64,000 bases of DNA from an uncultured Acidimicrobiia bacterium (GCA_963836205.1 CAWIIV010000008.1:1-64000); one strand, 5' to 3'. Counted from the stretch's first letter, positions 49,745 to 64,000 are shown. Translations and numbers: made by a program. The notes: generated from the letters alone by a model not told the origin.

Positions 49745-52083
49745 GTGATCAGAGAGGCCCTGGCCGGGCAGCGCATCGGTATCACCGGCGCCACCGGGTT
49801 CCTGGGCACCGCCCTCGTCGAGCGGCTGCTGCGCTCGGTGCCCGACTGCGAGCTGGTCCTGCTCATCCGGGGCGGGCGCCGCACGAGCCCCGCCACCCGC
49901 GCCAAGCGGGAGCTGTTCGGCAACGACGCCTTCCGCCGCCTGCGGGCCGAATGGGGCAGCCGAGTTTCGACGCCAATGTCGCCCGCCGGGTCCACGTGGT
50001 CGCGGGCGACGTGTCGGTCGACGGCCTCGGCCTCGACGACGACGGCCGGGCCCTGTTCGCCACCTGCACCACCGTCATCCACTCCGCGGCCCGGGTGAGC
50101 TTCGACTCCCCCCTCGACGCGGCCGTCGAGGTCAACCTGGTCGGCCCTCTCCGGGTGCTGGAGGCCGTACGCGAATCCGCCGTCGCCACCGGCCAACCGC
50201 CCGCCCACCTGGTCACCGTCTCCACCGCCTACGTGGCCGGCAGCCGGCGGGGCCTGTCGCCCGAGGCCCCCCTGAGCGAGACCCCGTTCAGCACCGAGGT
50301 CGACTGGCGCAACGAGGTGGCCGCCGCCCGTCGCACTCGGGCCGACGCCGACGCCGAGAGCCGCCGCCCCGAGCTGTTGGCTCATTTCACCAAAGAGGCC
50401 CGGGACGAGCTGGGCGCGGCCGGCCCCCCACTGCTGGCGGCCAAGGCGGAGAAGCGGCGGGAGGCGTGGCTGTCGGACTGGATGGTGGAGGCCGGCCGCC
50501 AGCGGGCCAAGGCCCTGGGGTGGCCCGACGCCTACGCCTACACCAAGGCCCTGGCCGAACGGGCCGTCCACGAGACCAAGGGCGACGTGCCGGTGAGCGT
50601 CGTACGCCCGTCGATCATCGAGTCGGCCCTGGCCGAGCCGTCCCCGGGCTGGATCCGCGGCTTCCGGATGGCGGAGCCGGTGATCATCTCCTACGGCCGG
50701 GGCCTGCTCAAGGAGTTCCCCGGCATCCCCGAGGGGATCATCGACGTCATCCCCGTCGACCTGGTGGTGGCGGCCATCATCGCCACCGCGGCCGCCGGCC
50801 CCGAGCCCGACTCAAACGTGTTCCAGGTGGCCACGGGCAACCGGAACCCCCTGCGCTACAAGATGCTCGTCGACCTGGTGCGGGAGTACTTCCAGGCCAA
50901 TCCCCTCTACGACACCCACGGCCAGCCCATCGTGGTCACGCCGTGGCAGTTCTCCCGCCGGGGACGGGCCCAGAAGCAGCTCGAGCGGGGCATCAAGATG
51001 CTGGCCACGGCCGAGAAGGTGGTCAGCAACCTCCCCATCCGGGGGGAGAAGGCGGAGGTCACCGGCCGCCTCGAGGAGCGCCGCACCCTGGGCGAGCGGG
51101 CGTACGACTACGTCCGCCTCTACGGCGCCTACGCCGAGACCGAGGCCGTGTTCGACGACAGCCGGCTGCGGGCCCTGTGGGCGACGCTCGACGCCGCCGA
51201 CCAGGCCGCCTTCTGCTTCGACACGACGGTCATCGACTGGCAGAAGTACGTCCAGGAGGGCCACATGCCCTCGGTCGTGAAGCAGGCCCGGGTGCGCACC
51301 ACGAGCGGCGGCCGGGAGGGACTGTCCCGGTACGAGCGGGGCAAGCGGTCGGTCCTGTCCCCCGACCGCCACATCGCCGCCTTCGACCTGGAGAACACGC
51401 TCATCGCGTCCAACGTGGTGGAGAGCTACTCGTGGCTGGCCACCCGCCACAAGCCCGACGAGGACCGGCCCGCCTTCGTCATGAAGATGCTGTCCCAGGC
51501 GCCGGGGCTGCTGTCGCTCGACCGCAAGGACCGGGGCGACTTCCTCCGCCACTTCTACCGCCGCTACGAGGACGCCCCCGCCGACAAGCTCCGGGAGGAC
51601 GCCAAGCAGCTGTTCAGCTACCTGCTGCTGACCAAGTCGTTCCCCGAGGGCTTCCGCCGGGTGCGGGAGCACCAGAAGCTCGGCCACCGGACGGTCCTCA
51701 TCACCGGCTCCCTCGACTTCATCGTCGAGCCCCTCCGGCCGCTGTTCGACGAGATCGTGTGCGCCCGGCTGGTGGAGAAGGACGGGTATTTCACCGGCGA
51801 GCTGCTCGACTCTCCGCCCACGGGCGAGGCGAGGGCCCTGCTGATGGCGTCGTATGCCGAGGCCGAGGGGCTGTCGCTGTCGGAGTCGATCGCCTACGCC
51901 GACTCGGCCAGTGACCTTCCCATGCTGGAAGCGGTCGGACACCCCGTGGCCGTCAACGCCGAGCCCAAGCTGGCCGCCATCGCCCGCAAGCGGGGCTGGC
52001 ACGTGGAGCAGTGGACCAAGTCGTCGGGCGGGGCCCAGGGTCTCCTCCCGCTGGCGCCGCGCCTGGTCGGGGGCGCCCAATGA
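49745..52083 (+). CDS. Fatty acyl-CoA reductase (NAD_binding_4) fused to a HAD-IB phosphatase (frameshift near 49955)
   Basis: ITGATGFLG, IHSAARVSFD, VSTAYV, GWPDAYAYTKA, VRPSIIES; HAD motifs AFDLENTL, ITGS, YADSASDLPML. Confidence 0.88.
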
Positions 52084-52093
52084 AGGGGACACA

Positions 52094-53266
52094 GTGAAGG
52101 CCATCCAGGTCGTCGACTCCCTCCCCCGCTACGGGCTGGCCAAGGTGGCGGGCTCTTTGGCGCCCGGGCTGGGGGCGAAGGTGGGCCCGGTGTCATTGGT
52201 CGACGTCGACGAGCCCGGCCTGCCCGCCGCCGGCTGGCACCGGGTGCGCCCCCGGCTTTCGGGCATCTGCGGGTCCGACCTGGCCACGGTCGACGGCAAG
52301 TCGTCTCCGTACTTCCAGCCGTTGGTGTCGTTCCCGTTCGTGTTGGGCCACGAGATCGTGGGCGACCTCGACTCGGCGAGCGGCGGACGGGTGGTCATCG
52401 AGCCGGTCCTGGGCTGCGCCGCCCGGGGGGTCGACCCGCCGTGCCGGGAGTGCGCCGCCGGGCGGACCGACAACTGCGAGCGCACCGCCTTCGGCCACCT
52501 CAAGCCGGGGCTGCAGACGGGGTACTGCCACGACACGGGCGGCGGGTGGTCGACGTCGATGGTCGCCCACCAGAGCCAGATCCACCCGGTCCCCGACCAG
52601 CTCGACGACGACGCCGCGGTGATGGTGGAGCCGGCCGCGTGCGCGGTGCACGGCGTGATGGGCGCCGAAGGAGGCACGGTGCTCGTTTTGGGGGCGGGCA
52701 CCCTCGGGCTGTGCGCCATCGCCGCCCTCCGCCGCTTCACCAACCCGGGCACCCTCATCGCCACCGCCAAGTACCCCGAGCAGCGGAAATGGGCCAAGGA
52801 GCTGGGCGCCGACGTGGTGGTGGAGCCCCGGGAGACGCACCGCCTGGTGCGGAGGGCCACCCGGTCGCTCAGGGTGGGCGCCAGCCTGTCGGGCGGCGTC
52901 GACGTGGTGATCGACTGCGTGGGCAGCGCCAAGTCGATCGAGGAGGACCTGGCCGTGGTCCGGCCGGGGGGCGACGTCATCCTCCTGGGCATGCCCTCGA
53001 CGGTGACGGTCGACCTCACTCCCCTGTGGCACCGCCAGATCCGCGTGCGGGGGTCGTACGCCTACGGCACCGAGTCGTTCGACGGCGAGCCCCGGCGCAC
53101 GTTCGACCTCGCCTTCGACCTGGTGGAGCACGCCCGGCTGGGCCGGCTGGTCTCCGCCCGCTACCCCCTCGACCGCTACCGTGAGGCCATCGACCACGCC
53201 GCCAACGCCGGATCCCGGGGCGCGGTCAAGGTGGTTTTCGACCTACGAGGAGAGAAGCGTCGTTGA
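52094..53266 (+). CDS. Zinc-binding alcohol dehydrogenase (MDR family)
   Basis: GICGSD, GHE, structural Zn cysteines C...CREC...C, GAGTLG. Confidence 0.9.
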   Translation: MKAIQVVDSLPRYGLAKVAGSLAPGLGAKVGPVSLVDVDEPGLPAAGWHRVRPRLSGICGSDLATVDGKSSPYFQPLVSFPFVLGHEIVGDLDSASGGRVVIEPVLGCAARGVDPPCRECAAGRTDNCERTAFGHLKPGLQTGYCHDTGGGWSTSMVAHQSQIHPVPDQLDDDAAVMVEPAACAVHGVMGAEGGTVLVLGAGTLGLCAIAALRRFTNPGTLIATAKYPEQRKWAKELGADVVVEPRETHRLVRRATRSLRVGASLSGGVDVVIDCVGSAKSIEEDLAVVRPGGDVILLGMPSTVTVDLTPLWHRQIRVRGSYAYGTESFDGEPRRTFDLAFDLVEHARLGRLVSARYPLDRYREAIDHAANAGSRGAVKVVFDLRGEKRR

Positions 53267-53291
53267 GCAGTGCCCCCTTGAGAAGACGACG

Positions 53292-54875
53292 ATGAGTCGA
53301 CCTGGTTTCGTTCTGGAGGTCGACCGGTCGACGCCTCCCATCCTGTTCCACCATGGCGAGGGCTTCCGGCTGGAGAAGCTCCCGTCCGGCAGCCGGGTGG
53401 TCTATCCGGCCGAGCCCGTCACCCCCCTCGACGACCCCGAGGGCGCCATCCGCCACGCCCTCGAGCACCCCGTCGGCGACAGCGAACCCCTGCGGGCCCT
53501 CCTCCGCCCGGGGATGAAGCTCACCATCGCCTTCGACAACGAGGCGGTGCCCCTTCCCCCGATGGCCGGTCCCGACAACCGCCAACGGGTGATCGAGGCG
53601 GTCCTTGAGTTGGCGGCCGAGGCAGGGGTCGACGACGTGGTGCTCATCGCCGCCCACGGCCTGCACCGGCGGGCCACCGAGGCCGAGCTCCGGCACATGC
53701 TGGGCGACCGGGTCTACGACGCCTTCGCCCCCCACGGCGCCCTCCAGCAGCACGACGCCGAGGACCACGACAACCTGATCGTGGTCGGCAAGACGGCCGA
53801 GGGTGAGTACGTCGAGGTCAACAAGCGGGCCGCCACCTCCGACCTGCTGGTCTACGTCAACATCAACCTGGTGGCGATGGACGGCGGCCACAAGTCCACC
53901 ATGACCGGCCTCGTCTCCTACCGGAGCCTCAAGCACCACCACAACGTGGTCGGCATGCAGCACAGCCGGTCGTTCATGGACCCGCCCAACTCCGAGCTGC
54001 ACAACGCCACCTGGCGCATGGGCCGGGTGTTGGCCCAGCACTGCAAGGTCTTCCAGATCGAGACCACCCTCAACTCCGACACCTTCCCCAGCCAGTTCGC
54101 CTTCCTGCAGAAGCGGGAGTGGGAGTGGTCGTTGCGGGATCGGGCGACGTACCTGGCCACCGCCAAGAGCCTCGACCGGTGCCCGCCGGCGATGGCCCGC
54201 AAGATCATGCACGGGATCAAGTCGCCCCAGAAGATGACGAGCGTGCAGGCGGGCGAGGTGGAGGCGGTGCACCGGCTCACCCTGGCCGAGGTCCACCGCC
54301 AGCACTGCGTGCCGGTGGAGGGCCAGGCCGACATCGTCACCATGGGGCTGCCCTACATCGGGCCGTACAACGTCAACTCGATCATGAACCCGCTGCTGGT
54401 GATGTGCCTCGGCCTCGGGTACTTCTTCAACCTCTACCGGGGCAAGCCCCTCGTGCGGGAGGGCGGCGTGGTCATCCTCAGCCACCCCACCCGGTGGGAG
54501 TTCCACCCCGTCCACCACCCGAGCTACATCGACTTCTTCGAGCAGGTGCTGGCGGAGACCACCGACCCCCTCGAGATCGAGAAGAAGTTCGAGGACGACT
54601 TCGCCAACGACCCCTGGTACATCCACCTGTACCGCAACTCCTACGCCTACCACGGAGTCCATGCGTTCTACATGTGGTACTGGGGCGCGCACGCGTTGCA
54701 GCACGTGGGAGGGGTCATCATCGTCGGCGGCGACCCCAAGGCGGTGCGGCGGATGGGCTTCAAGCCGGCGTCGACGATGCGCGACGCCCTGGAGATGGCG
54801 GAGGACGTGGTCGGCCGCGACCCGTCGATCACCCACTTCCACGCCCCGCCGATCCTTTTGGCGGACGTCACCTGA
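53292..54875 (+). CDS. LarA/DUF2088 (lactate racemase-like) protein
   Basis: IRHALEHP, LTIAFD, AHGLHR, QHDAED, DGGHKS...HHHN. Confidence 0.82.
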   Translation: MSRPGFVLEVDRSTPPILFHHGEGFRLEKLPSGSRVVYPAEPVTPLDDPEGAIRHALEHPVGDSEPLRALLRPGMKLTIAFDNEAVPLPPMAGPDNRQRVIEAVLELAAEAGVDDVVLIAAHGLHRRATEAELRHMLGDRVYDAFAPHGALQQHDAEDHDNLIVVGKTAEGEYVEVNKRAATSDLLVYVNINLVAMDGGHKSTMTGLVSYRSLKHHHNVVGMQHSRSFMDPPNSELHNATWRMGRVLAQHCKVFQIETTLNSDTFPSQFAFLQKREWEWSLRDRATYLATAKSLDRCPPAMARKIMHGIKSPQKMTSVQAGEVEAVHRLTLAEVHRQHCVPVEGQADIVTMGLPYIGPYNVNSIMNPLLVMCLGLGYFFNLYRGKPLVREGGVVILSHPTRWEFHPVHHPSYIDFFEQVLAETTDPLEIEKKFEDDFANDPWYIHLYRNSYAYHGVHAFYMWYWGAHALQHVGGVIIVGGDPKAVRRMGFKPASTMRDALEMAEDVVGRDPSITHFHAPPILLADVT

Positions 54876-54890
54876 CGTGAGCCAGAAGAA

Positions 54891-55808
54891 GTGAGACTGC
54901 CCCGGCCCAAGTTCCCGCTGGGGCCGCCGACGTGGCCCACGCCGGTGCCCCGGCCCCCGGTGGAGCAGGAGACGGGCGCCGCCTACGACACCGCCTGGGC
55001 CCGCAAGTTCCCGGCCCGGGTGGCACGGGCGATGATCGTCGACGACGTGCTCCGGCCGGTGGCCCACCTCCTGGCCCGGCCCCAGGTCACAGGCCTCGAC
55101 CGGCTCGACGACCTCGACGGGCCCGTGATCTTCGTGGCCAACCACAACAGCCACCTCGACACCACCCTGCTCCTGGCGACCATGCCCGAGAAGTGGCGCC
55201 ACAAGACGGTGGTTGCCGCGGCGGCCGACTACTTCTTCCCCACCAAGTTCAAGGGGGCGCTCTCCGCGCTCACCATCGGGGCCATCCCGATGGAGCGCAC
55301 CCGGGTCGACCGCCGGTCGGCCGACCTGGCCGCCGAGCTGCTGGCCGACGGCTGGAGCGTGCTGATCTTCCCCGAGGGGGGCCGCAGCGCCGACGGGTGG
55401 ACCACCACCTTCCGGGGCGGCGCCGCCTACCTGGCCCTGCGCTGCGACCGGCCGGTGGTGCCGGTGCACCTCGAAGGCACCCGCAAGGTGTGGAAGCGGG
55501 GCGAGAAGCTGCCGACGCCGATAGAGAAGAAGTCGGCGGTGGCGGTGACCTTCGGGGCGCCGATGTGGCCTGAAAAGGGGGCGGATGGGAAGGTGGAAAG
55601 CTCTCGGCGCTTCGCGGGCCGGATCGAGGCCGAGGTGGCCACCCTGGCCGACGAGCAGCGCACCGACTGGTGGCAGGCCCGCAAACGGGCCGCGGCCGAG
55701 GCCACCCCCTCGCTCAAGGGCCCGGAGGCGGGCGCCTGGCGGCGGTCGTGGGCACTCGAGGGGCAGGGCCGGGCGTCGGTCTCCCGAGATTGGCCCGACT
55801 CCCCCTGA
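54891..55808 (+). CDS. Lysophospholipid/glycerolipid acyltransferase (PlsC-like)
   Basis: ANHNSHLD (HxxxxD), FPEGGRS, VVPVHL. Confidence 0.92.
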
Positions 55809-55830
55809 CCCCGCCACGGTCGGGCCGGTC

Positions 55831-56598
55831 GTGACCGCGGCGCGGCTGGCGTTCGTCGTCAGCGGGGCGCCGGGCACCCCGGAAAGCCTGGCGAACCTCC
55901 GCCGCCGGTATGGCAACGTCGAGCCGGAGGACGCCGAGGTCATCGTCGCCATCGGCGGCGACGGCTTCATGATCGAGTCGCTGCACCGTTACCTGCCCCT
56001 CGACGTCCCGATCTACGGGATGCACGGCGGCACGGTCGGGTTCCTCATGAACACCTACTGCGAGGACGGGCTGCGGGAGCGGGTGCAGGCGGCCGAGCTG
56101 AGCGTGCTCCACCCCCTGCGCATGCTCGCCACCAGCGCCGACGGGACCACGGTGAACGCCCTCGCCATCAACGAGGTGTCCCTGTTGCGCCAGACCCGCC
56201 AGGCGGCCAAGGTCCGCATCACCATCGACAACACGGTGCGGGTCGACGAGCTGATCTGCGACGGGGTCCTGCTGGCCACGCCGGCGGGGAGCAGCGCCTA
56301 CAACTTCTCCGCCCACGGGCCCATCATCCCCATCGGGGCGTCGGTGTTGGCCCTGACGCCGATCAGCGCCTTCCGCCCCCGGCGGTGGCGGGGTGCCCTC
56401 CTCGACTCCAAGGCCCGGGTGCGGTTCGAGACGATCGAGCACTGGAAGCGCCCCCTGAGCGCGGTGGCCGACCACACCGAGGTCCGCAACGTGCTGACGG
56501 TGGACGTGGGGGAGGACCCGAGCGTCGACCTCCGCATCCTCTTCGACGCCGATCACAACCTCGAGGAACGCATCCTCCGGGAGCAATTCACCACGTAA
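55831..56598 (+). CDS. nadK: NAD kinase
   Basis: [41 protein letters not shown]. Confidence 0.93.
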
Positions 56599-59526: not shown

Positions 59527-62500
59527 ATGAGCCCATTCCGTTCCCCAATTCGTTCCCCATTCCGATCTGCTGAGCACGACGCCTGCGGAATCGGCTTCGT
59601 CGCCGACGCCACCGGGCGTTCGTCCCGGGCCATCGTCACATCCGCGTTGCGGGGGCTGGCGTGCGTCAAGCACCGGGGGGCATTGGCCGCCGACGCCCGG
59701 TCGGGCGACGGCTCCGGCCTGCTCCTCCCCATCCCTCACGAGATCTTCGGTCGCGACCCGGAGGGCGCGGCCCACGGGCTGGCCATGCTCTTCGTGCGGG
59801 GCGACGATCCCACCGAGGCGGTGGAGGCGGCGGCCGCGGCCGAGGGCATCCGGGTGGTCGAGTGGCGGGACGTGCCCACCGACGACGGCGAACTGGGCGA
59901 CCTGGCGCTGTCCACCCGGCCCCGGATCGTCCAGGCGGTCCTCGCCGGCGCCGGGTCCAACGAGAAGGCCGCCTTCCGCCTCCGCCGCCGCATCGACGCC
60001 GCCACCTCCGGCACCTACGTCGTCTCCTGCTCGTTCCGCACCGTCTGCTACAAGGGCCTAGTCACAGCCGACGCCCTGGGCGACTTCTACCTCGACCTGG
60101 CCGACGAGCGCTTCGGGGCGACGTTCGCCATCTTCCACCAGCGGTTTTCCACCAACACCCTCCCCACGTGGGAGCGGGCCCAGCCCTTCCGGATGCTCTG
60201 CCACAACGGGGAGATCAACGCCCTCGCCGGCAACGTCAACCGCATGCGGGCCCGGGCCGTGCTCGGCACGGAGGCCGCCGGCCTCGGCCCCGAGGAGCTG
60301 TTCCACCCCGTCCTCGACGTGTCCGACTCCGACTCGGGCCAGCTCGACTCCGCCATCGAGCTGCTCACCCGGGGCGGGCGCGACGTCCGCCACGCGGTGG
60401 CCATGACCATCCCCGAGGCGTGGGAGGGCGAGCGCGACCTCGACCCCGCCGTCCGGGCCTTCTACCGCTACCACGCGTCCCTCATGGAGCCGTGGGACGG
60501 TCCCGCCGGCCTGGTGTTCACCGACGGCGTCGGCGTGGGCGCGGCCCTCGACCGCAACGGGCTCCGTCCCCTGCGCTACTCGGCGTGCGAGGACGGCTTC
60601 GTCGCCTGCTGCTCGGAGACGGGCGCCATCGACGTGTCCGGGCACGGCCAGGTCACGCGCGGCCGCCTCGGCCCGGGCGAGATGCTCTTCGTCGACCCCA
60701 CCCGGGGCGTCCTCGACGACGTCGCCTGCAAGCAGCGGGTGGCCGCCGCCGCCCCCTACGCCCGGTGGGCGGCCGATGGCCTGCGCGACTTGTCCCGGGG
60801 CCGGGCCATCGAGCAGACGCCCGAGCCCGACGAGATCGAGCGGCGCCAGGCAATCTTCGGCTACTCCAAGGAGGAGCTGGCCATGGTGCTGCGGCGCATG
60901 GCCAACGACGCCAAGGAGCCGACGTACTCAATGGGCGACGACTCGCCCCTCCCCCACCTCGCCGGCCGCCCCCGCCCCCTGCACCATTACCTCAAGCAGC
61001 GCTTCGCCCAGGTCACCAACCCTCCCATCGACCACCTGCGGGAGCGGCTGGTCATGAGCCTGCGCACCTGCCTCGGCCCCCGCAGCCCGATCCTGGCCGA
61101 GGGACCGGAGGCGGCCCAGCTGCTCGTACTCAAGTCGTTCTTCCTGTATCCGTCGGCGATCGTCGACCTGCTGGTGTCCGACCCCGGATTCGGCGTGGCC
61201 CACCTCGACGCCACCTTCCCCGCGGCCGACGGACCGGGCGGGCTGCGGGCCGCGGTCGAGCGCCTGTGCGACCGGGCCGAGGAGCGGGCCCGGGCCGGCA
61301 TCGGCATCCTGATCGTCGACGACGGGGGCGTGAACGACGAGCGGGCGGCGGTTCCGGCCCTGCTCGCCACGGGGGCGGTCCACTCCCGGCTGGTGGCATC
61401 CGGCCTGCGGTCCGACACCTCCTTGGTGGTGTCGGCGGACGACGCCCGTGACACCCACTACCTCGCCTGCCTGATCGGCTACGGCGCCGACGCCATCTGC
61501 CCCGGCCTGGCCCTGGAGACGGTGGCCCACGAGGCCGACTACAACCCCGATGTCGACCTGTCCGGCCCCGAGGCCCAGGAGCGGTTGCAGGCGGCCATGG
61601 AGGACGGCGTCCTCAAGATCATGTCCAAGATGGGCATCTCCACCGTCGACTCCTACCGGGGGGCGCAGATCTTCGAGGCCATCGGCTTGGGCGCCGACGT
61701 GATCGACGTCTGCTTCCCCGGCACCCCGTCGATCGTCGGGGGTATCGGATGGGACGAGCTGGGCGAGGACGCCCTCGCCCGCCACGCCAACGGCCGCCTG
61801 GCCGAGGGCGGCTACTACCGGGTGCGCAAGCGGGGCGAGTTCCACACCCACACCGACGACGTGGTCAAGGCCCTCAACGAGATGAAGGCCGCCCACCTGC
61901 TCCAATCCGCCCTCCGCGACGCGTCGGCGGCCGTCGCGGTGGCCACCAACGGTGCCGGCGGCAACGGGTCCTCGGCGGCGAGCGGCAACGGCGACGGCAA
62001 CGGCGACGGGTCTGCCAGCTACCAGCGCTTCGCCGATCTGGTCAACGGCCGGCCCGCCACCGAGCTCCACGACCTCATGGACCTCGTCCCGTCCGGGCCC
62101 CCCGTCGCCCTCGACGAGGTGGAACCGGCCCTGGCCATCACCCGGCGGTTCTCCACCGGGGCCATGTCCCACGGGGCCCTCAGCCGGGAGGCGCACGAGA
62201 CGCTCACCGAGGCCATGAACCTCATCGGCGGGCTGTCGAACTGCGGGGAGGGGGGCGAGAGCTACACCCGGTTCAAGACCCGGGGCCAGGCCAAGGGCGA
62301 CAAGAACAGCCGCATCAAGCAGATCGCCTCGGGCCGCTTCGGCGTCACCCCCGAGTACTGCGCCTTCGCCGACGAGCTCAACATCAAGATGGCCCAGGGA
62401 TCGAAGCCGGGCGAGGGGGGCCAGATCCCGGGCAACAAGGTGTCGGAGGAGATCGCCGCCCTCCGCCACACCCAGCCCGGGATCGGTCTCATCTCCCCGC

Positions 62501-64000
62501 CCCCCCACCACGACATCTACTCCATCGAGGACCTGGCCCAGCTCATCTTCGACCTCAAGCAGGTCAACCGCCACGCCGACGTGTCGGTGAAGCTGGTGGC
62601 CGAGGACGGCGTCGGCACCATCGCTGCGGGCGTGGTGAAGGCCCTGGCCGAGGTCGTCCACATCAGCGGGTGCAACGGGGGCACCGGGGCGTCGCCACTC
62701 ACGTCGATCAAGCACGCCGGCCTGCCCTGGGAGCTGGGCGTGGCCGAGACCCAGCAGGCGCTGGTGGAGAACGGCCTGCGCGATCGGGTCCGGGTGCGGA
62801 TGGACGGCGGCCTGATGACCGGCCGCGACGTGATCATGGCCGCCCTGCTCGGGGCCGACGAGTACTCCTTCGGCACCGCGGCCATGATCGCCGAGGGCTG
62901 CATCATGCTCCGGGCCTGCCACAAGGACACCTGCTCCACCGGCATCGCCACCCAGCGCCCCCACCTACGGGCCAAGTTCGCGGGCACGCCCGAGGGGGTG
63001 GCCGCCTACATGGTGTTCATCGCCGAGGAGGTCCGCCGCTACCTGGCCGAGCTGGGCTTCCGCACCATGGACGAGGCCATCGGCCAGGTGGAGTGCATCC
63101 GCCAGCGGCCGGCCGACGACCCCCGGGCCAACACCATGGACCTCAGCCCGCTGCTCCGGCCGCCGTCCGACCCGTCGGCCCCCCGGCATTTCGTGCGGGC
63201 CCTCCCTATCCAACGGCCCCGCTCGGCCCTGGGCGACCGCCTGGTCGACGACGCCTTCCAGCCCATCTGGGACGGTGTCGACCTTTCCCTGCGCTACACC
63301 ATCGGCAACTCCGACCGCACGGTGGGTGCGGCGTTGAGCGGGGCGCTCGCCCTGGAGTTCGGCGAGACTCCCCCACCGGGCACCGCCAGCGTCCGCTACG
63401 ACGGCTCCGCCGGGCAGAGCTTCGGCGCCTTCCTGGGCCACGGCATCGAGTTCGACCTGGTGGGCGAGGCCAACGACTACGTGGGCAAGGCCATGGCCGG
63501 CGGGCGGGTGGTGATCCGTCCCCCGGAGAACGACGCCGGCACGCCGGTGCTGGCCGGCAACACCTGCCTCTACGGCGCCACCGGCGGGGAGCTGTACGTG
63601 GCCGGGTCGGCCGGCGAACGGTTCGCGGTGCGTAACTCGGGGGCGTCGGCCGTGGTCGAGGGCGTCGGCGACCACGCCTGCGAGTACATGACCGGCGGGT
63701 GCGTCGTGATCCTCGGCCCCGTCGGCTACAACCTGGGGGCAGGCATGACCGGTGGGCAGGCGTTCGTCTGGGACCCCGAGGGCAAGCTGGCCAGCCGCCT
63801 GAACCCGGCCCTGGTCGACGTGGCCCTGCCCGACGCAGACCTGCTGGAAGACCTCCGCTGGCGGGTCGAGCGCCACGCCGAGCTGACGGGGTCGCCCCGG
63901 GCCGCGGCGTTGCTGGCCGACTGGGACGCGACCGTGGCCGACATGTGGCTGGTGGCCCCCGTCGACCTCATCAAGCGCCTCGAGCAGCAGCGGGCCAGCC
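59527..64000 (+). CDS. gltB: Glutamate synthase large subunit (3' end beyond window)
   Basis: EHDACGIGF, HQRFSTNT, HNGEIN, EPWDGPA, FAQVTNPPID, MSHGALS, QIASGRFGV, KMAQGSKPGEGGQ, C-terminal GXGXG domain. Confidence 0.97.
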   Translation, partial: MSPFRSPIRSPFRSAEHDACGIGFVADATGRSSRAIVTSALRGLACVKHRGALAADARSGDGSGLLLPIPHEIFGRDPEGAAHGLAMLFVRGDDPTEAVEAAAAAEGIRVVEWRDVPTDDGELGDLALSTRPRIVQAVLAGAGSNEKAAFRLRRRIDAATSGTYVVSCSFRTVCYKGLVTADALGDFYLDLADERFGATFAIFHQRFSTNTLPTWERAQPFRMLCHNGEINALAGNVNRMRARAVLGTEAAGLGPEELFHPVLDVSDSDSGQLDSAIELLTRGGRDVRHAVAMTIPEAWEGERDLDPAVRAFYRYHASLMEPWDGPAGLVFTDGVGVGAALDRNGLRPLRYSACEDGFVACCSETGAIDVSGHGQVTRGRLGPGEMLFVDPTRGVLDDVACKQRVAAAAPYARWAADGLRDLSRGRAIEQTPEPDEIERRQAIFGYSKEELAMVLRRMANDAKEPTYSMGDDSPLPHLAGRPRPLHHYLKQRFAQVTNPPIDHLRERLVMSLRTCLGPRSPILAEGPEAAQLLVLKSFFLYPSAIVDLLVSDPGFGVAHLDATFPAADGPGGLRAAVERLCDRAEERARAGIGILIVDDGGVNDERAAVPALLATGAVHSRLVASGLRSDTSLVVSADDARDTHYLACLIGYGADAICPGLALETVAHEADYNPDVDLSGPEAQERLQAAMEDGVLKIMSKMGISTVDSYRGAQIFEAIGLGADVIDVCFPGTPSIVGGIGWDELGEDALARHANGRLAEGGYYRVRKRGEFHTHTDDVVKALNEMKAAHLLQSALRDASAAVAVATNGAGGNGSSAASGNGDGNGDGSASYQRFADLVNGRPATELHDLMDLVPSGPPVALDEVEPALAITRRFSTGAMSHGALSREAHETLTEAMNLIGGLSNCGEGGESYTRFKTRGQAKGDKNSRIKQIASGRFGVTPEYCAFADELNIKMAQGSKPGEGGQIPGNKVSEEIAALRHTQPGIGLISPPPHHDIYSIEDLAQLIFDLKQVNRHADVSVKLVAEDGVGTIAAGVVKALAEVVHISGCNGGTGASPLTSIKHAGLPWELGVAETQQALVENGLRDRVRVRMDGGLMTGRDVIMAALLGADEYSFGTAAMIAEGCIMLRACHKDTCSTGIATQRPHLRAKFAGTPEGVAAYMVFIAEEVRRYLAELGFRTMDEAIGQVECIRQRPADDPRANTMDLSPLLRPPSDPSAPRHFVRALPIQRPRSALGDRLVDDAFQPIWDGVDLSLRYTIGNSDRTVGAALSGALALEFGETPPPGTASVRYDGSAGQSFGAFLGHGIEFDLVGEANDYVGKAMAGGRVVIRPPENDAGTPVLAGNTCLYGATGGELYVAGSAGERFAVRNSGASAVVEGVGDHACEYMTGGCVVILGPVGYNLGAGMTGGQAFVWDPEGKLASRLNPALVDVALPDADLLEDLRWRVERHAELTGSPRAAALLADWDATVADMWLVAPVDLIKRLEQQRAS

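Follow-up and report, generated by a model that had tools for sequence, protein, structure and literature searches.

A 64,000-nt stretch of DNA from an uncultured Acidimicrobiia bacterium (GCA_963836205.1, CAWIIV010000008.1:1-64000) carries a four-gene operon that may make 1-O-alkyl (ether) glycerolipids and would thus be a reshuffled equivalent of the elb system of myxobacteria; we place the probability of this reading slightly above even, at roughly 0.55. The whole stretch is referred to here as the window, and positions are counted from its first letter. The operon spans 49745-56598 and encodes a fatty-acyl reductase (FAR) fused to a HAD-type phosphatase (FAR-HAD), a zinc-dependent medium-chain dehydrogenase/reductase (MDR), a LarA homologue (LarAH) and a PlsC-type acyltransferase, followed by a NAD kinase (NadK; Table 1). 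The first four of these genes make up an operon conserved in actinobacteria, to which the window itself adds only NadK, specific to its genus, and a frameshift that splits the reductase gene. This operon ties together two problems, namely the formation of the ether bond by aerobic bacteria in the elb-type route, which is unsolved, and the orphan LarAH14 group, from which a protein has been purified with no substrate found (PMC7583248).

Conservation of the four-gene core

All five genes lie on the plus strand where the first-pass annotation had placed them, with intergenic gaps of 10, 25, 15 and 22 nt, and profile matches to all five proteins uphold the identities that it had assigned. The window proteins were compared with 20 loci from about 16 actinobacterial families and with 80 Acidimicrobiia loci from named records. 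The latter were obtained by a contig scan with the LarAH alignment, all matches being Acidimicrobiia-type, and their counts include only those loci whose contig has room for the gene in question. Among the diverse loci, FAR-HAD and MDR are present in 20/20 and PlsC in 19/20, and the corresponding figures for the Acidimicrobiia are 76/76, 78/78 and 78/78. The order of the core genes is kept in all 20 diverse loci (PlsC in 19 of them) and in every Acidimicrobiia locus with sufficient contig reach (n = 80 loci). With the same gene order recurring from one family to the next, chance is far from sufficient to account for the arrangement. A three-gene form without MDR (FAR-HAD, LarAH and PlsC) occurs at two metagenome loci, L191 and L196.

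Of all the operon's genes LarAH is conserved best, with a mean column identity of 73% among 14 sequences from different families. It belongs to NF052592, the NCBIfam model named 'NPN-dependent hydroxyacid isomerase, LarAH14/15/16 family', where NPN denotes the nickel-pincer cofactor, and of 401 genomes sampled from the phylum 98 score above the cut-off of this model, among them the genome of the window and four that are unpublished. Exact-sequence look-up identified cultured carriers in Ilumatobacter fluminis, I. coccineus, Acidimicrobium ferrooxidans DSM 10331, Rubrobacter xylanophilus, Egicoccus halophilus and Nitriliruptor alkaliphilus. The LarAH proteins of R. xylanophilus, R. naiadicus and R. 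calidifluminis fall into one 90% cluster, and metagenome-assembled genomes (MAGs) of Egibacteraceae are also among the carriers.

Active site and fold of the LarA homologue

The nearest solved structures to LarAH are the LarA homologues with a single catalytic histidine, LarA_Sp (9Q2U/9Q3K) and LarA_Bw (9Q3J), at E = 7.6e-40. The AlphaFold2 model of LarAH (pLDDT 88.5, pTM 0.90) has 9q3k_A as its best fold match in Foldseek, and the fold is common to LarA_Sp and LarA_Bw, with TM-scores of 0.79/0.86 and 0.71/0.82, respectively. This search gave 19 matches at E <= 0.001; among the matches listed, rows 1-18 are LarA or malate racemase and the last is 4nar, an unnamed structural-genomics protein of Thermotoga maritima.

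The active site of LarAH is of the same one-histidine kind. In LarA_Sp (9q2u), His115 is catalytic, Lys195 tethers the cofactor and the second histidine is replaced by Asn185 (PMC12611868). His125 of LarAH (GLHR), the counterpart of His108, aligns with His115, and Lys201 (GGHK), equivalent to Lys184 in L. plantarum LarA, aligns with the tethering Lys195; both are invariant in 14/14 sequences. The second catalytic histidine (His174) is not kept, Asn192 being aligned with Asn185 of 9q2u, and Asn190 and Asn192 are likewise invariant. LarA_Sp and LarA_Bw share with LarAH the GLHR histidine, the lysine of the GG.K motif and an asparagine in place of the second histidine. The adjacent His216 and His217, also invariant (14/14), align with an HH pair of 9q2u and are candidates for the nickel-histidine, whose number in PMC12611868 (His221) differs from the count along the 9q2u chain. 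At the position of the arginine (Arg75) that binds the carboxylate of the substrate and the phosphate of the cofactor, where the alignment is gapped, LarAH reads FDNEAVP and its relatives FDDISLP, with no Arg or Lys. The same source places Desguin's groups 14 and 15 among those without the second catalytic histidine and argues that single-histidine LarA homologues cannot be ordinary racemases (PMC12611868). We infer that a one-histidine NPN enzyme would be unable to racemise but could borrow a hydride and return it.

LarAH also differs from these relatives. In structural alignment it is 19-24% identical to LarA_Sp and LarA_Bw, which themselves sit in sugar-metabolism contexts, unlike LarAH, and are without an insert of about 45 residues (about 262-310) that is found in the actinobacterial proteins. 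The insert is absent from a sister group of about 470 aa and is modelled by AlphaFold2 as three helices (267-307), which, as a guess from the model, might contact membrane or lipid. The insert is rich in Trp and Phe.

Fused Lar_N forms were considered as a clue and set aside, since neither P0288 nor one acyltransferase-joined fragment was informative. P0288, of 947 aa, combines Lar_N with a chlorophyll a/b-binding domain; it probably represents either a gene model from a eukaryotic alga or an artefactual fusion.

Nickel-pincer cofactor genes

The window genome encodes LarB, LarC and LarE, each above its cut-off (229.9, 417.1 and 288.1 bits, respectively), with larB directly before larC, and the operon LarAH is its sole Lar_N gene. 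In two cultured strains of Nitriliruptoria, Egicoccus halophilus and Nitriliruptor alkaliphilus, larE, larB and larC come immediately after PlsC and complete a seven-gene cluster (Table 1). Such a junction of larEBC with the operon is seen in 2/20 diverse loci and in 0/80 Acidimicrobiia loci. With presence of LarC defined as a match at E <= 1e-20, the sample of the window's class contains 17 genomes with both LarAH and LarC, 13 with neither and none that is discordant, and across the phylum sample LarC is present in 87 of the 98 LarAH carriers. As a separate observation, a second strong NAD_binding_4 gene (G000:C23:134595-135311; 225.9 bits, open frame of 424 aa) lies about 28 kb from larBC.

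Comparison with elb and other ether-lipid systems

The Myxococcus xanthus cluster elbABCDE corresponds to MXAN_1531 to MXAN_1527 (Lorenzen et al. 2014, as cited in PMC9131029 and PMC13012113). As these two reports describe it, ElbD combines FAR, acyl-CoA synthetase, acyl carrier protein (ACP) and AGPAT-like domains, ElbB is HAD-like, ElbC has a domain of unknown function, and ElbA and ElbE belong to the NAD-dependent epimerase/dehydratase family (PMC9131029, PMC13012113). Disruption of elbD strongly reduces alkyl and vinyl ether lipids, and the steps between fatty acid and alkyl ether lipid in the elb-type route are there called unknown (PMC9131029).

Set beside these published accounts, the first-pass view that the operon holds elb-like parts in different fusions stands at the level of domains (FAR, AGPAT-type acyltransferase and HAD). 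In elb the fusion partner of the reductase is the acyltransferase, whereas in the window it is HAD. ElbD includes an acyl-CoA synthetase and ACP, whereas the window operon is without both, AMP-binding or PP-binding matches having been found in 0/5 operon proteins, in agreement with the absence of an adenylation/ACP module noted at first pass. Where elb has the SDR-type (short-chain dehydrogenase/reductase) ElbA and ElbE, the window has a zinc MDR, whose ADH_N and ADH_zinc_N domains confirm it as the addition that had been proposed. NadK is an extra of the window's genus.

A lead to the possibility that ElbC is itself a LarA homologue is an Atlas cluster of 471-aa Lar_N proteins that is commonest in Myxococcota (score 0.92). 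We found no statement in the searchable literature that ElbC is a DUF2088/LarA protein. The LarA-like subgroup of about 470 aa, which came from a representative search, has one named member among 10 looked up, from an Acidobacteria MAG, and a profile search of this subgroup returned no Myxococcus names among the matches listed. Its relatives in metagenomes were scanned with a 3-sequence alignment, giving 80 loci, with gene maps for 25; among the 80, FAR-HAD, LarAH and PlsC occur together only in L191 and L196. A tblastn search against plasmids in quest of elb loci gave no match.

The proposed pathway also shares its logic with the eukaryotic and myxobacterial AGPS route (GNPAT, FAR1, AGPS and alkyl-DHAP reductase, DHAP being dihydroxyacetone phosphate). 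Both would draw on a fatty alcohol from FAR, an acyltransferase acting on a backbone of glycerol phosphate and, as the chemical handle, a C2 carbonyl. The AGPS route depends on the FAD-dependent AGPS, which the window operon is without; here a nickel-pincer enzyme would transiently create the C2 carbonyl instead.

Proposed pathway

We infer both the product and every catalytic step of the following scheme. The reductase domain would convert acyl-CoA or acyl-ACP to a fatty aldehyde or alcohol, using NADPH. LarAH, with the NPN cofactor made by LarB, LarC and LarE, would carry out a redox-neutral step on the glycerol-phosphate backbone; in the version that we favour, the C2 hydroxyl of a lysophosphatidate-type substrate (1-acyl-glycerol-3-phosphate) would be transiently oxidised. 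By way of the transient ketone, enolisation could occur and the sn-1 acyl group be lost; the alcohol derived from the reductase would then add, and the hydride would be returned to the same face. PlsC would acylate the product at sn-2 and the HAD-IB domain would take off the phosphate. The MDR enzyme, missing from the three-gene forms, may give a helper reduction, and in the window's genus the second NAD kinase downstream would provide NADPH.

The boldest part of this scheme is doubtful and well short of even odds: that LarAH is the missing ether-bond-forming enzyme of aerobic elb-type synthesis, oxidising C2 and exchanging the sn-1 acyl group for one derived from the fatty alcohol or aldehyde. 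If it were true, LarAH would be a cofactor-hidden equivalent of AGPS and alkyl-DHAP reductase combined, and the first NPN enzyme to act on a lipid instead of a 2-hydroxy acid. Confirmation of the ether-lipid reading would make sources of environmental alkyl glycerol ethers out of many Acidimicrobiia, Rubrobacteria and Nitriliruptoria, and would extend what is known of nickel-pincer chemistry.

Several observations weigh against the ether-lipid reading. The likeness to elb is one of published domain descriptions, and an ElbD-sized gene lies beside a LarA-like gene in 0/25 mapped metagenome loci, a result with no bearing on ElbC. The reductase gene is frameshifted in the assembly. In motif I of its HAD domain (FDLENT) the nucleophile Asp is kept and Glu at +2 replaces the usual second Asp of DxD, as it does in 17/20 diverse and 73/75 Acidimicrobiia sequences. 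MDR reached no equivalog cut-off in the family profile search, where its top matches were scyllo-inosose 3-dehydrogenase, threonine 3-dehydrogenase and idonate 5-dehydrogenase, each with a score well short of the respective cut-off. LarC is common in genomes without LarAH as well (189/303), and in 11 of the 98 carriers LarC went unmatched at E <= 1e-20, nine of them genomes of one family (92-98% complete, one a single contig; Table 1) together with two others; either the dependence of LarAH on LarC is not strict or another insertase is used. The distant LarAH paralogues of the phylum have FAR or PlsC nearby in 0/8 loci. In the R. xylanophilus cluster (L042:10623-13123), genes for a protoglobin, a MarR protein and a MOSC-domain protein stand between MDR and LarAH, and PlsC is not adjacent. 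Finally, the authors of the nearest solved structures link them to carbohydrate metabolism (PMC12611868), and Frankia LarAH14, which like LarAH by profile belongs to the group that names NF052592 and is likewise actinobacterial, was purified, tested with NPN and inactive on every substrate tried (Desguin et al. 2020, PMC7583248).

Alternative pathways

The operon could alternatively serve the synthesis of fatty alcohols or wax esters as neutral storage lipids, with FAR making the alcohol, the PlsC-type enzyme esterifying it, and LarAH and MDR engaged in an unrelated side reaction. Within the operon a clear lipid reading is available only for the FAR, with its YxxxK, and the acyltransferase, and we know of no ether lipid demonstrated for any carrier outside Rubrobacter. 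We nevertheless regard this pathway as improbable: the gene that it would leave to a side reaction is the best conserved of all and stands between MDR and PlsC in 98/100 loci, the other two contigs ending there. Moreover, the PlsC family acylates acceptors of the glycerol-phosphate type, wax synthases being another family, and a HAD phosphatase as fusion partner suggests that an intermediate carries a phosphate.

The carbohydrate links of the solved relatives, which lie among glycolysis and sugar genes (PMC12611868), suggest a pathway to an acylated polyol or glycolipid by way of a sugar acid, polyol phosphate or head group. LarAH would epimerise the sugar acid or phosphate, MDR would oxidise a polyol, in line with its best matches to scyllo-inosose, idonate and threonine dehydrogenases, HAD would dephosphorylate, and the reductase and acyltransferase would handle the acyl group. 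Phytophthora LarAH15 is a gluconate/mannonate 2-epimerase, although its numbering may not match that of the NCBIfam name (PMC11770544). This pathway is quite improbable, given that the solved relatives share just 19-24% identity with LarAH in structural alignment and that Frankia LarAH14 is negative in every column of the activity table, the last of which we take as D-gluconate since only the two GntE enzymes score there (PMC7583248). Furthermore, no sugar kinase, transporter or glycosyltransferase forms part of the operon in the 100 loci compared with the five window proteins, their other neighbours not having been systematically scanned.

Very unlikely is a route to 2-hydroxy-acid or long-chain 1,2-diol lipids, with inversion at a 2-hydroxy fatty acyl centre by LarAH, reduction to the diol by FAR and acylation by PlsC: the characterised LarA homologues do all act on 2-hydroxy acids (PMC7583248, PMC11770544), but here the second histidine for racemisation is replaced, with Asn190 and Asn192 invariant, the carboxylate-binding arginine position reads FDNEA or FDDIS, and such enzymes are argued not to be ordinary racemases (PMC12611868).

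Frameshift in the reductase gene

The first-pass annotation had described the reductase and HAD phosphatase as one fused protein. Both domains are present as described, but they do not lie in a single open frame, the gene being split by a frameshift that had been missed. Residues 1-67 of FAR-HAD (49745-49945) are in one frame, which terminates at 50098, and the remainder from about 49975 is in another. In a DNA alignment the close relatives L053 and L058 have two bases fewer at the frameshift site and carry the gene in frame, and the same holds for those of the 20 diverse loci in which both parts matched. Contigs from soil runs, about 95% identical to the window, omit two letters, the first at 49958 or 49959 and the second at 49965 (4/4 runs, 3 studies); no run searched contains the exact strain, the best share of sampled words being 0.21.

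As no run contains the strain itself, the +2 frameshift could be an error of assembly or a lesion private to this strain. Assembly error is favoured because several related MAG loci show many split matches. The latter case, a real frameshift in an operon that is a decaying remnant in this strain, is unlikely but not negligible. The two extra bases do split the reductase frame, and the bridging contigs of all four runs, from relatives at about 95% identity, are without the two letters. On the other hand, the rest of the operon's genes are undamaged, the split gene retains 85-99% protein identity to close relatives in each of its two pieces, and the related MAG loci with many split matches (L067, L079, L084, L115, L124 and L127) are typical of indel-prone assemblies; the best word share of 0.21 again means that no run with the exact strain was found.

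The 5' piece covers NAD_binding_4 profile positions 1-56 and is 99% identical in protein sequence to L053 and 91% to L058. The Sterile match of the gene as a whole (49745-52083) is weak, just under the cut-off (34.4 versus 35.4 bits), and the HAD-IB domain matches TIGR01490 at 102.9 bits against a cut-off of 98.3, with motif IV reading DSASD.

NAD kinase

NadK had been taken at first pass as a component of the lipid system, which the survey contradicts, since NadK matched in 0/20 diverse loci and follows PlsC in 2/68 Acidimicrobiia loci. It is a second paralogue, a housekeeping NadK being encoded elsewhere in the genome (94 bits on NAD_kinase_C, versus 35.8 bits for the operon NadK). The PRK04761-type NadK occurs in 6/7 other genomes of the same genus, in five of which it follows PlsC, and in 0/33 genomes of other genera; among 14 control genomes it was found in Caulobacter only. 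Its occurrence within the genus and absence from other genera indicate a recent, genus-specific addition. Fatty-acyl reductases use NADPH, and on this knowledge of the family it is plausible that the operon NadK supplies NADPH to the reductase.

The operon in Rubrobacter

An independent pointer to an ether-lipid product comes from the family that holds R. xylanophilus, in which LarAH is matched at E <= 1e-20 in 31/31 sampled genomes, 27 of them full-length above the cut-off and four as partial matches. The R. xylanophilus cluster (L042) keeps FAR-HAD, MDR and LarAH together. Rubrobacterales are reportedly dominated by mixed ether/ester lipids and are said to have a putative elb-like operon for 1-O-alkyl-glycerol-phosphate (Sinninghe Damste et al. 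2023, Syst Appl Microbiol 46:126404), which may correspond to the L042 cluster. The FAR-HAD cluster is the only lipid-type FAR candidate found in R. xylanophilus, because the other strong NAD_binding_4 gene encodes an adenylation-thiolation-reductase protein beside a BCCT transporter. This second protein (L222:7857-11024) has 1055 aa with AMP-binding, PP-binding and NAD_binding_4 domains; it adjoins the BCCT transporter, an SDR and an aldehyde dehydrogenase, and resembles a betaine- or choline-type carboxylate reductase module.

Features and genomic context

Table 1 Coordinates of the operon genes, the frameshift site and related loci
Feature	Location	Strand	Characteristics
FAR-HAD 5' piece	49745..49957	+	GTG start preceded by AAGAAAGAGG ribosome-binding site; Rossmann GATGFLG
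Frameshift site	49958..49965	+	Two bases more than every relative compared
FAR-HAD remainder	49966..52083	+	NAD_binding_4 positions 58-258; YxxxK (YAYTK); C-terminal HAD-IB
Zinc-dependent MDR dehydrogenase, polyol/threonine dehydrogenase type	52094..53266	+	ADH_N + ADH_zinc_N
LarA-family protein (LarAH)	53292..54875	+	Lar_N 119.5 bits; NF052592 875.5 bits vs 740 cut-off
PlsC/AGPAT-type acyltransferase	54891..55808	+	HX4D (HNSHLD), FPEGGRS; Pfam Acyltransferase 78.3 bits
Short NAD kinase, PRK04761 type	55831..56598	+	NF003406 367.8 bits vs 211; GGDG motif (GGDGF)
larE, larB, larC after PlsC	L044:11648-13898; L045:5887-8100		Egicoccus halophilus and Nitriliruptor alkaliphilus
LarC-less carriers of one family	G014, G074, G116, G183, G222, G287, G321, G376, G387		LarAH above cut-off

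The PlsC protein also matches TIGR00530 at 60.1 bits, below the cut-off of 102.95. A scan of the operon for promoters and terminators gave no signal above shuffled sequences. Outside the operon, the upstream neighbours are a GT4 glycosyltransferase and a divergently oriented MscS channel, and those downstream are a CAP-domain protein, a PQQ-repeat protein and gltB. The last of these, encoding the glutamate synthase large subunit (59527-63999), extends past the end of the window.

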